A stretch of DNA of 64,000 nucleotides, taken from positions 1 through 64,000 of the forward strand of contig CAUYUJ010000075.1 in the NCBI GenBank assembly GCA_963575745.1, in the 5' to 3' direction. The position numbers and the translations under genes were made by a program. This document shows, piece by piece, positions 3,501 to 6,500 of this stretch (the stretch's first letter is position 1; the number at the start of each line of letters is the position of its first letter). Origin of the DNA: Prorocentrum cordatum (lineage: Eukaryota). Below the pieces are notes generated by a model. It was not told the origin of the DNA, did no database searches, and worked only from the letters and a program-made list of their open reading frames with translations.

Positions 3501-6500
3501 GTGGATCCGAAGATACCGGTGCTGAAGGGCGAGACTCTGAAGGATTTCACCAGGTACAAGAGGGCGGTGCAGGCGGCCGAGCTGGGATGCGAGTCCAAGG
3601 AGCAGAAGATCGCGCTCGAGCCCAAGCTGTACCGCAACCTCCTCGGCGCGGACAACTCGATCAGAGTCCTGATCGAGCAGACGGGCCCGAAGGACTATGC
3701 CGTCGAGAAGGGCGCCGAGGTGCTGCTCAAGTTCTTTGAGGCCGAGCGCTTCGCCAAGAGCAGTTTCCGTGAGCTGCCGAAAGCCTTCGACACGCTCTTC
3801 GACCTGACGTACTTCGAGCGCAAGGGCGAATAACCGATGGCGGCATTCTGCACGGCCATGGAGGTGGCGAAGCGGAACCTAGAGGTGGACCCGGACATGA
3901 AGGTAAGCTCGCACGAACTAGGGTACCACACTCTGAAGCAAGGCAGACTCGACAAGGACGAGCGCAACCTGGTGATAGCGAGGGCAGAGAAGACATTCAA
4001 TTTCACGAAGATCTCGACGACGCTCAGGAATCTCCCCCTTCGTGGTGGCAACAAGCACCGCGCTGGACGATGAACGTACACGACGGCGAGTCCGGACATC
4101 GAGACGAAGAAGACGCGCACTGTGGTGAGTTCTGGGTCCAGGACGATGACGGGTACTGGTATGAGTGGGACGACGAGCGTGGCGTCTACGCGTGTGCTGA
4201 CGATGAGGACGAAGACGCGGACTGGGAAAGTAGTCATCTGTTCTACATCGAGGACGACGCCGACGCCTACCTGGCAGGAGAAGATGACGAATATCACCAG
4301 ACCCTGGTCACTATGCGCGAGAGTCGACTGAAGATGAATAAGTTGCGGGCTGCCAGGGGATTCCTCAAGGGAAAAGATCGACGGTGCCGTGGACGAGAGC
4401 GCAGCAGCTGGCGGCAAGGCGGCTGGGAAGAGCTCCGGGAAGGGCAAAGGCAAGGGCAAGGACGGTGGCAAGTCCAAGGACAGACGATGCGGTAAGTGTG
4501 GCAGGATGGACCACGCCACGCCCGAGTGCCCGACTGGTGGCTCTCCTGGGAAGCCCTCCAAGGGCAAGAGCCGCGGCAAGGGATCGAAACCAGCCGATCG
4601 TCAGCGACGGCTCGGGTTCTGGGCGATGAGTGCCCTGGTCTGTGCGGTGCCGACATGTATGGACGTCAGGCACCCGAGGCGCGGCCAGGACATCGCCTTC
4701 GTGAGCGGGCAGCCCGAGAAAGATTAGGACATCCAGATGGTGAGTATGGACAGCGATCCGATCGTGCCGGACAGGCCAGAGCTCGAGGTGATGATCTCAA
4801 GCGACGTCGTGCCGCCTTCCTTGATGGATAGCGGGGCCTCGATTGCAGTGGCAGGACGCGGGTGGCTTGACCGCGTCGATGCGGAGCTCGCGAAGTATGG
4901 CCTCAAGCCAATCAAGCTGGAGGCTCACCAGAAATTCAACGGACTCGGCAGAACACGACGTGAATCAAAGCAGAAGTGGATCATCCCGGTCGGCATTGGG
5001 AAGAAGCATGTGCTGCAGGAGTACTTCGAGAACCCCTGGCGACATGGTCGGCCTGACGAGCAAGAAGGACCTCGCCGAGTGGTAGAGGAACCTCTACATG
5101 CGCGAGGACGGCCACTGGGCGGACTTCCAGGAGCTCGGGGTGCATGGCAAGGAGCTGGTGAAGCTACCTGGCGGGCATGCAGGCTTCGACCTCTTCGACT
5201 ACGACCTCGAGTCGTACCAGTCGGAGCCCCTCTTCGAGAGGTTCCGGGTTGAGGAGATGCAGCCCGAGCCGGATGCATTCCTGGTCGCGGAGGCGCTGCG
5301 GGAGTTCGAGCCAGGCTTCCAGGTGAAGGATCACGCCGACTCTTGGGTCGCAGAGGCCCTGAAGAACGGCAGCAAGGGCATCTTCAAGAAAGGCACGCTC
5401 AAGCGGATCGACAAACTGATGAAGGAGTATTCGGTCATTCTCGACGTACTGCGTGACAGCCAGGAGACCTTCCCGTGGGAGTTGTTTACGAAGGAGGCTC
5501 GCTTTACTCGTGTAGCCTCGAAGGGTGGTCATGCGAACGCGACCCCCTCAGATTTGTCGGTCGGGGTTAACTTCAACGACCCCCAGATCCAGTCGGATCT
5601 CCTGATCCTGATAAAGACCTTCGAGCCCTGGATGGTCTCGGTCGCGTTCCCGTGCGCACCTTTCTTGAACGTGCAAAGAATTCATCGTGCTTAGGGCATG
5701 GGCGACCAGGTGGACGATTTGATCGAGGAGTTCAGGCCGCTGGTTGATTTTTCGGCCAAGGTTCTTCGGACTCAGCCTGAAGGCGGACGTATCGGCATCG
5801 GCGAGAACCCTCTCACGAGCCGCGCATGGAACGAGAAGCCGATCGTGGAGTTGTTGCGTTGGCACGGCGATCGACCTCCACTGTGCGAGATGGTCACGCT
5901 GCACCGGTGCATGTTCGGACTGACGGACGACTACAGGACACCGATTCGTAAGGTCACGCGCATGTTGGTGCCCAATGGCTCGTGCTTCTAGTGGTGGCTC
6001 GACCGCGCGTGCGACAAGGGCTACGAGCACGCCGACACGGCCAGACGAGGCGCGCTCTCGCGGGCTAGTGCCTGGCCGGACGACCTGGGCAAGACCCTGG
6101 TGAGTGCTGGCGTGGCGCACCGACCTGAAGAAGCTGGGTATCGGAGACGGTGTGACGAAGGTCCCGGATCAGCAGACCATGCGCACGGTGGCCAAGGAGT
6201 TCAGGCTGAGGAAGGACCTGATTGACGTGCGCGTGCTGAGGCAGAACGAGGCCGTTCCCCTACCTCGCGTAGCTGTGCGGCGCATATACGCCATGTACAC
6301 TGACAAGGACGTGCTGGCCGACTTCTCCCACGCATACGCGGACGACCCGAACTTCGCGACGGTCGAGCCAGCCACGAGGTACCCAACCGACACGGTGGTC
6401 GCGATCTACGTGAAGGAGCCCAAGGTGCAGACATCCTTCCCTGCGACGGCACCTTTACTCGGCAGCCGACCGGAAGCATTCAAGCCAGACGATCGCGAAG

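Follow-up and report, generated by a model that had tools for sequence, protein, structure and literature searches.

A decayed Ty1/Copia retrotransposon of Prorocentrum cordatum and a dinoflagellate family of polyproteins with a C5-methyltransferase-like domain between protease and integrase

A 64,000-nucleotide stretch of the Prorocentrum cordatum genome (GenBank assembly GCA_963575745.1, contig CAUYUJ010000075.1, positions 1 to 64,000 of the forward strand; hereafter the window) holds an ~8.5-kb long terminal repeat (LTR) retrotransposon on the + strand, in which a domain of ~215 residues with the predicted fold of a cytosine-C5 DNA methyltransferase (DNMT) lies between the aspartic protease and the integrase. 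The base composition of the window is 60% G+C, and the proteins that it matches best come from P. cordatum gene models. The element is bounded by a 5′ LTR that begins with TGTGA (3172–3397, +) and a 3′ LTR (11423–11653, +), which self-blastn pairs at 86.6% identity over 231 columns. Between the LTRs the order is CCHC zinc knuckle, protease DSG, methyltransferase-like domain, HHCC integrase and reverse transcriptase (RT); the LTR pair and the integrase ahead of the RT make it a Ty1/Copia element. The LTRs are diverged and the coding region is broken by many stops and frameshifts; the element is old and dead. No clear target-site duplication is found at the LTR ends. The bases just 3′ of the 5′ LTR (3398–3415, +) resemble, with several mismatches, what is presumably the initiator tRNA-Met primer-binding site typical of Copia.

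The copy of the domain in the window (5458–6108, +) is recognized by translation, family search, AlphaFold, Foldseek, VIA-align and hhalign, and it is decayed. Frame 1 reads through window positions 5086–6108 with two in-frame TAG codons, at 5692–5694 and 5989–5991 (+), where relatives have Gln and Pro, respectively, and the frame is lost near 6100–6110. The translation of the + strand includes, in order, WELFT (motif I-like, 5476–5490), DLSVGVNF (5551–5574), AFPCAPF (the Pro-Cys or PC motif, 5644–5664), GENP (5800–5811), CMFGL (5908–5922), RKVT (5947–5958), CDKGYEH (of the form C...H.H, 6010–6030) and AWPDDL (6070–6087). A preliminary description, made from the sequence, had listed these motifs in this order, the two TAG codons, the placement of the segment between the protease DSG (4827–4835) and the integrase H..H..C..C (from 6600), and a motif I without the usual glycines; all four observations hold, the last because the copy reads F-T-K at motif I. 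At key positions (domain numbering is from window 5431) the copy has K21, N47, H158, R159 and Y198 in addition to its two stops. Other losses at key positions are noted in its P. cordatum relatives, and the local P. cordatum family of the domain is decaying.

This decay is not apparent from the annotation. The gene model P0006 (‘Copia protein’, 1,895 aa) corresponds to the window locus at 90% identity by splicing around the defects; the stretch with the PC motif and the first TAG (window 5640–5710) is treated as an intron, and other defects are skipped likewise. Since the defective stretches are removed as introns, P0006 hides both the decay and the key motif. Knowledge of the P. cordatum copies comes solely from the proteins of gene models, and many of these models avoid defects by splicing.

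The remaining regions of the element are similarly damaged. A gag-like region interrupted by stops and frame changes (3468–4070, +) is recognized from its open reading frames (ORFs) and from tblastn of the P. cordatum polyproteins P0005 and P0007, which covers 3471–4070. It is followed by the gag CCHC zinc knuckle (4473–4535, +; Pfam zf-CCHC_3, E 0.0012, residues 46–66 of the frame at 4338–4724) and by the aspartic protease, with its D-S-G active site (4827–4835, +) read from the translation of a region (~4728–5250) homologous to P0004 and P0007. The ~115 residues that separate the protease from the methyltransferase-like domain (5086–5430, +) are common to the P. cordatum copies and are also observed in relatives at ~32–36% identity (P0021, P0022, P0025 and others); they are not shared by the bulk of the wider family, and Pfam assigns them to no family. 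Downstream of the domain, a Prorocentrum-family-specific linker (6104–6553, +), in another frame after the frameshift, is delineated from its ORFs and by alignment to P0008, P0009 and P0015, and likewise matches no Pfam family. The integrase (6600–7475, +) has its H..H..C..C zinc finger from 6600 and a core broken over two frames, as indicated by ORFs and by tblastn of P0007, which covers 6450–7220. Pfam rve has no match in the window itself, where twelve ORF pieces were scanned, and is found in relatives at the equivalent place; thus, the integrase assignment in the window rests on homologues. A tandem repeat with a period of 45 bp (7947–8054, +) encodes three copies of a 15-residue unit (LPGDG.-type) 3′ of the integrase core. 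The frameshifted Copia-type RT (8398–9107, +) is assigned from a weak Pfam RVT_2 match (E 0.086, within 8398–9009) and from the position of RVT_2 after rve in relatives; apart from this match and the zinc knuckle, Pfam finds nothing in the twelve ORF pieces. The ORF list also includes a frame of 606 aa (9471–11291, +) that spans the end of pol and a C-terminal Cys-rich extension. This frame is open in an otherwise broken element, its last ~400 residues lie past the end of pol and include several Cys-rich motifs, and it matches no Pfam family.

The methyltransferase-like segment is not confined to the window. A phmmer search with the 341-aa translation against 1.84 billion representatives finds 443 cluster representatives at E ≤ 1e-3, of which 62 reach E ≤ 1e-10 and 12 reach E ≤ 1e-30; with 443 matching representatives, the segment is not a chance pattern. 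The common core spans query residues ~125–341 (window ~5460–6108). Twenty clusters were looked up, and the five species named are all dinoflagellates: P. cordatum, Cladocopium goreaui, Durusdinium trenchii, Effrenium voratum and Symbiodinium natans. Among 40 family members scanned with Pfam, rve lies downstream in 14 and RVT_2 in three, while PF00145, the C5-methyltransferase family, is found in none. To judge from these sequences, many dinoflagellate Ty1/Copia polyproteins contain the domain as a regular component maintained by selection, situated between the aspartic protease and the integrase. Among sequencing runs, no RNA run is listed as containing the query; one DNA run of a marine metagenome contains a fraction of 0.07 of its words.

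Relatives that appear intact are detected in metagenomes. A scan with a sub-alignment of the closer members yields 55 loci; the domain is present in 53 of them and complete within a single open frame in 31. In eight loci a frame of 1,995–2,050 codons is open over the whole ~6-kb locus. In six such frames the domain lies at ~830–1050, and Pfam finds RVT_2 at ~1770–2020 in all six and rve at ~1165–1300 in five; these long-frame loci look like intact Copia elements. Many contigs of the metagenomic loci (L083–L137) are 8.6–9.0 kb in length, which is about one whole element. The median observed/expected (o/e) ratio of CpG is 0.61 in 50 related metagenomic loci, compared with 1.07 for GpC and with no host baseline for comparison. 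The loci with frames of ~2,000 codons, which are CpG-depleted, look like recently active elements. The CpG statistics do not decide between the mechanisms considered below.

The pattern of substitution in the domain is that of a constrained protein region. Of 465 pairs, 394 are saturated at synonymous sites; across the 12 whose synonymous divergence (dS) lies at 0.05–2, the ratio of nonsynonymous to synonymous divergence (dN/dS) has a median of 0.15 and is below 0.3 in 11. The pairs are non-independent, and a few loci seem to be one element assembled twice. For the 21 elements that have the domain and the integrase region in a single frame, the median proportion of nonsynonymous differences (pN) is 0.41 versus 0.79 for synonymous differences (pS) in the domain, and 0.34 versus 0.81 in the integrase region; pN is below pS in 207 of 210 pairs, domain and integrase region alike. 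Similarly, 360 divergent pairs from 28 database polyproteins have a median identity of 28.4% in the domain versus 28.5% in the 450 residues downstream. By these measures, purifying selection acts on the domain of intact metagenomic elements about as strongly as it does on the integrase region.

The residues that selection retains include several of those expected of a C5-methyltransferase. Among 66 members outside the P. cordatum group, the conserved positions are: (i) in the first third of the domain, E17 (57/66), F/Y19 (60/66), G33 (61/66), G45 (58/66) and an acidic or amide residue at position 47 (D in 46 and N in 18); (ii) around the PC motif, P66 (63/66), P74 (58/66) and C75 (65/66); (iii) around the Glu-Asn motif, E125 (65/66), N126 (49/66, with H in 15), P127 (65/66) and W133 (61/66); and (iv) in the C-terminal part, D158 (52/66), Q159 (52/66), C160 (64/66), K174 (65/66), T176 (61/66), C194 (65/66), H198 (59/66) and H200 (63/66). 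In the 31 intact metagenomic domains E17, P66, P74, C75, E125, P127, W133, C160, K174, T176, C194 and H200 are present in every case, with N126 and H198 in 30. Thus, motif IV (Pro-Cys) and motif VI (Glu-Asn; E-N-P in the family and ENV in Escherichia coli Dcm) are both present. The preliminary description had proposed that the likeness would fall if PC and ENP varied among family copies; the Cys and the Glu are in fact retained in 65/66 distant and 31/31 intact members each. The cofactor loop of motif I, F-x-G-x-G, is not found, while E-x-F/Y is retained. K174-x-T176 is nearly invariant on the strand that follows a hairpin, a region in which hhalign is unreliable. Positions 41, 45 and 47 are assigned to motifs II and III by their order and the predicted strands. 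The E-x-F/Y and G-x-D/N residues would fit an adenosyl-cofactor pocket, though a non-canonical one, since the glycine loop is missing and Ser/Thr occupies position 41.

Sequence-level links to methyltransferases are weak but consistent. The two PHROG families that attract the largest numbers of members both carry the label ‘DNA methyltransferase’: phrog_757 is matched by 14 of 57 members at E ≤ 1 (best 1e-4) and phrog_2882 by 11 of 57 (best 3.8e-4). In scans of single members, one or both families are matched at E ≤ 0.05 by 11 of 29, in a co-linear manner; neither the window copy nor its close P. cordatum relative P0005 matches phrog_757 or phrog_2882. PF00145 is matched weakly by three of the 57 members (best 12.6 bits, E 0.092, profile positions 28–88, the motif II–IV region), and is the sole Pfam family outside the integrase families that is matched by more than one member. 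Alignment of the family profile by hhalign gives P-values of 9e-4 against E. coli Dcm, 2e-4 against a profile of Dcm orthologues (close orthologues, of 74–99% identity) and 2.4e-4 against a profile of diverse bacterial DNMTs. In each run FPCxPWS is paired with FPCQPFS and ENP with ENV, and with the profiles ElFaG is also paired with DLFAGIGG. The broader profile, built from 80 loci (46–84% identity, best tblastn segment) that gave 79 translations joined to E. coli Dcm, does not raise the hhalign probability, which is 44–47%. Among the protein-atlas leads are clusters that bear the name cytosine-5 methyltransferase, as well as short viral clusters in which a minority of members have PF00145. 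By tblastn, member P0026 has no match in 50,697 phage records.

The strongest link is the predicted fold. An AlphaFold model of the window copy, from an alignment of 57 members with that copy first, has a mean predicted local distance difference test score (pLDDT) of 92.7 and a predicted template modelling score (pTM) of 0.88. Foldseek finds 54 matches to this model in the Protein Data Bank (PDB) at E ≤ 1e-3, and all 36 among the matches listed are C5-methyltransferases, including DNMT3B, 3A, 3C, DNMT1, M.HhaI, Dnmt2 and DIM2; the best is DNMT3B (6u91_A, E 2.2e-5, template modelling score (TM) 0.48). VIA-align, a method independent of Foldseek, compares the model with 48,161 chains, and its top seven are all C5-methyltransferases (Z 9.2–10.9): DNMT3A (4u7t_C, Z 10.9, root-mean-square deviation 3.7, 177 residues aligned), DNMT3B (Z 10.7) and M.HhaI (Z 10.1), followed at ranks four to seven by 3g7u (Z 9.7), DIM2 (Z 9.3), DNMT1 (Z 9.2) and M.MpeI (Z 9.2). 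In the best 50 rows, 17 are DNMT-type, and the others are generic Rossmann oxidoreductases (Z 7.7–8.9) and a MATa2/MAT2B chain (9qpp_E, Z 8.3). A second AlphaFold model, of P0112, an intact and distant member with 24% identity to the window copy, has a pLDDT of 87.2 and draws on an overlapping alignment of the same family. Its Foldseek search gives 55 matches at E ≤ 1e-3 (best E 1.4e-5), and all 35 among the matches listed are DNMT3, DNMT2 or DNMT1. After the domain, the P0112 model has an acidic linker of low confidence (residues 237–264, pLDDT < 50) and then integrase zinc-finger helices. The preliminary description had named the lack of a Rossmann/C5-methyltransferase fold as one of two refuting outcomes, and such a fold is detected by AlphaFold, Foldseek and VIA-align; a DNMT-fold domain is well supported by the models.

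Proteins of the same size fit the model better than those of the PDB. In BFVD, a collection of predicted viral structures, the best match is A0A0A0RJX0 (210 aa, E 8e-8, TM 0.60/0.64), and others include the Tetraselmis virus 1 ‘putative cytosine DNA methyltransferase’ A0A2P0VN45 (218 aa, TM 0.56/0.57) and the Lactococcus phage P087 ‘putative DNA methylase’ C3U2K5 (212 aa, TM 0.55/0.57). In the model, the last strand is separated from two short C-terminal helices by ~26 residues of coil (182–207, with C194, H198 and H200). As this coil alone lies between them, the domain has no target-recognition domain (TRD).

In C5-methyltransferases, the Cys, the Glu-Asn and a basic residue attack C6 and protonate N3 of the pyrimidine. 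Of this catalytic set the Copia domain appears to retain Pro-Cys (motif IV), Glu-Asn (motif VI) and, in the hairpin of motif VIII, a basic residue. Part of the cofactor site is likewise kept, as E-x-F/Y (motif I) and G-x-D/N (motif III). The place of the TRD would be taken by a short loop with an invariant Cys...His-x-His, of which C194, H198 and H200, together with C160 after strand 6, may form a zinc site that replaces the TRD. From the sequences and models, the single most likely mechanism is that the domain of intact elements is an active C5-methyltransferase acting on cDNA or target DNA, a proposal that attracts nearly as much belief as doubt. With no TRD the domain cannot read sequence alone; its action would be non-specific or else directed via the adjoining integrase. 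As the domain adjoins the integrase, the substrate may be set by the location of the protein and would be either the cDNA of the element in the particle or the DNA at the integration site, with the integrase. What the sequences and models establish is a family with this fold and polyprotein position, conserved under purifying selection, and the decay of the window copy; adenosyl-cofactor use, the substrate, methyl transfer and any benefit to the element are inferences.

Several results weigh against an active C5-methyltransferase. At the level of the fold, the VIA-align margin over generic Rossmann folds, though real, is only ~2 Z units (first unrelated Z 8.9), and the equivalence of motifs rests on hhalign (I, IV and VI) and predicted strand order rather than on an active-site superposition of Cys75, Glu125 and Lys174. 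The metal site is a putative one read from the conserved Cys/His set. At the level of residues, the motif I glycine (G21) is found in 25 of 66 distant members and in none of the 31 intact domains, with no second Gly in the consensus. Position 41, which closes strand 2, is acidic in 46 of the 66 (D in 44, E in two) and Ser/Thr in 28 of the 31. No Q-x-R-x-R (motif VIII) is seen, and neither a TRD nor the G-N-x-V of motif X is found (GNxV is absent from the consensus). At the level of profiles, the preliminary description had proposed a PF00145 search, which does not bear out the likeness: the window translation matches no Pfam family at E ≤ 10, and none of the 57 members reaches the PF00145 cut-off of 22 bits. 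Searches of PDB sequences by phmmer and with the family hidden Markov model (HMM) find no methyltransferase, with unrelated proteins as the best matches (E 0.16–0.85); HMM-to-sequence comparison in both directions with 80 bacterial DNMTs yields only 4–9 bits, at the PC motif; and the hhalign probabilities are 22–47%. Finally, the window element is not depleted in CpG (o/e 1.02 versus 0.96 in the rest of the window). The earlier claim of a Copia polyprotein with a C5-methyltransferase-like domain stands. Its extension to a packaged, active enzyme that pre-methylates cDNA or host DNA is unproven, as is methyl transfer itself: the TRD and the GxG loop are missing, Ser/Thr occupies the position of the ribose-binding acid in 28 of 31 intact domains, and the window element lacks CpG depletion.

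The same departures from the canonical enzyme suggest that the DNMT fold may have been turned to changed chemistry or another substrate, such as RNA (the element RNA or a tRNA primer), uracil or another base, or a non-methyl group, perhaps with a metal involved. Although unlikely as a specific account, this alternative is the most credible of the rivals. It would explain why the catalytic Cys, Glu and Lys are invariant in the intact domains while residues of the S-adenosylmethionine (SAM) site are not (no motif I Gly, Ser/Thr at position 41), why there is no TRD for reading duplex DNA, and why a further four Cys/His positions, adjoining the hairpin of motif VIII, are invariant. The fold matches include the RNA methyltransferase Dnmt2 and a DNA C5-carboxymethyltransferase (8yf3), and the DNA of the dinoflagellate hosts has unusual base modifications (PMC11572971, 10.1101/2023.11.30.569493). 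However, the retention of E-x-F/Y (57/66 and 60/66) and G-x-D/N (58/66 and 64/66) suits an adenosyl cofactor; DNA methyltransferases, not RNA enzymes, give the best fold matches; and no result points to a particular alternative reaction.

An improbable alternative is that the domain is a non-catalytic DNMT derivative, a pseudo-enzyme like DNMT3L that serves the integrase or the polyprotein as a module binding nucleic acid or protein, for instance for dimerising, for chromatin tethering or for recruiting a host DNMT. The degenerate cofactor loop and the missing TRD are compatible with such a role, as are the closest solved folds, which are of the DNMT3 type and form oligomers with the inactive DNMT3L, and the constant position of the domain just upstream of the integrase, beyond a low-confidence acidic linker. 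Pseudo-enzymes, however, usually lose catalytic residues, whereas Cys75, Glu125, Asn126, Pro127 and Lys174 are kept in 30–31 of 31 intact and 49–65 of 66 distant members. The dN/dS of ~0.15 signifies constraint and does not separate catalysis from binding. Very improbable, finally, is a domain that is not related to DNMTs at all (either a Rossmann-like domain of generic type or an α/β-fold Cys/His hydrolase, with PC and ENP a chance likeness), for while no significant HMM match to PF00145 or PDB sequences is found, short-chain dehydrogenases (Z 7.7–8.9) are not far under the DNMTs and the invariant Cys and His could in principle form a hydrolase dyad, the Foldseek rows listed for two queries are all C5-methyltransferases, motifs I, IV and VI are in register with Dcm by hhalign, the top two PHROG families are both ‘DNA methyltransferase’, PF00145 is the sole non-integrase Pfam family with more than one member match, and the protein-atlas leads point to C5-methyltransferase clusters. 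The Cys/His hydrolase is itself rated low; neither a peptidase nor an amidotransferase is among the fold matches listed by Foldseek, VIA-align and BFVD.

An active C5-methyltransferase acting on cDNA or target DNA is thus the favored, if tentative, account of the intact domains. A more elaborate version of it, which is doubtful as a whole, is a TRD-less and possibly zinc-assisted catalyst, captured from a virus, that would mark new cDNA or the site of integration and thereby let the insertion pass as ‘self’ within heavily modified genomes. The product of such a catalyst may differ from plain 5-methylcytosine, since the cofactor site is non-canonical, and viral capture is suggested by the nearest relatives, which are short viral proteins.

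The surroundings of the window element include a phosphoglucomutase (PGM) gene on the − strand. PGM_PMM_I (E 1.3e-17) is located at 12362–13222 and PGM_PMM_II/III (E 3.3e-8 and 1.8e-18) at 2174–3004, with the 8.5-kb Copia element between these parts; thus, the element either lies in a phosphoglucomutase intron or splits that gene. A run of 100 N at 47758–47857 is an assembly gap.

The class of retrotransposons with DNA methyltransferases is recent and so far small (LINE, DIRS, Gypsy and chromovirus-like elements), and it is relevant to the manipulation of host epigenetic defence by mobile elements. If active, the Copia domain would be a natural minimal C5-methyltransferase core without a TRD, coupled physically to an integrase and of interest to enzyme mechanism and engineering, and it would open to experiment the part that self-encoded DNA modification plays in retrotransposition. 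If inactive or repurposed, it would be a new example of the DNMT fold in other use. Since the profile scores stay below the PF00145 cut-off and neither the GxG loop nor the TRD is found, the domain is labelled DNMT-fold or DNMT-like, not DNMT.

The closest known systems are the retrotransposon-borne DNMTs described by de Mendoza et al. 2018 (PMC5890265): SymbioLINE-Dnmt and SymbioDIRS-Dnmt3 of Symbiodinium and KnitGypsy-Dnmt3 of Klebsormidium. These element classes agree with the preliminary description, which placed such DNMTs in retroelement classes other than Copia. The same source states that Symbiodinium Copia, the most abundant type of retrotransposon there, ‘lacks any DNMT domain’, and the present family suggests that this statement reflects the limits of Pfam searches. 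EpiLTRs, which are chromovirus-like, are described from Cymbomonas and Euglena in a 2026 preprint whose list of transposable-element DNMTs has no Copia entry (10.64898/2026.05.21.726589). For heat-activated Symbiodinium Copia elements, PMC5776459 lists integrase, RT and RNase H alone. No description of a Copia-borne DNMT-like domain is found in the literature searched, which did not extend to the supplements of the papers. Like the retrotransposon DNMTs, the Copia family has a cytosine-methyltransferase-type domain inside a retrotransposon, under purifying selection across copies, with dinoflagellates again as hosts. By contrast, the known retrotransposon DNMTs are recognizable by Pfam, cluster with Dnmt3, Dnmt4 or an orphan clade, and are located in LINE ORF1, in DIRS/Gypsy pol or at the 3′ end of pol, whereas the Copia domain lies between protease and integrase, is invisible to PF00145, is ~215 aa in length and has no TRD and no GxG loop.

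Of the solved structures, DNMT3A/DNMT3B (4u7t, 6u8p, 6u91) and M.HhaI (10mh) are the best matches, with Z of 10.1–10.9 and 177–185 residues aligned. The Copia domain shares with them the order of strands and helices, with PC after strand 4 and E-N-x at the end of strand 5, at an identity of 11–13%. The solved enzymes are 270–330 aa and have a TRD, QxRxR, GNxV and a glycine-rich cofactor loop, none of which is found in the Copia domain. The short viral proteins (phrog_757 of 247 positions, phrog_2882 of 262, A0A0A0RJX0, A0A2P0VN45 and C3U2K5) are of the same size, provide the best global fit (TM 0.55–0.64) and apparently are also without a TRD; the PHROG links to them are the sole sequence-level hits with several members below 1e-3. 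They differ in that they stand alone in phages and algal viruses rather than within a polyprotein, and their activity appears to be known from annotation alone. Another Copia lineage with a domain of the DNA-methylation system is that of arthropods, which has captured a methyl-CpG-binding domain (PMC6673714); this domain reads methylation, is not of the methyltransferase fold and belongs to another host lineage. Compared with these known systems, the dinoflagellate Copia domain is novel in four ways: its element class, its position in the polyprotein, its minimal form without a TRD and its divergence past the reach of Pfam.

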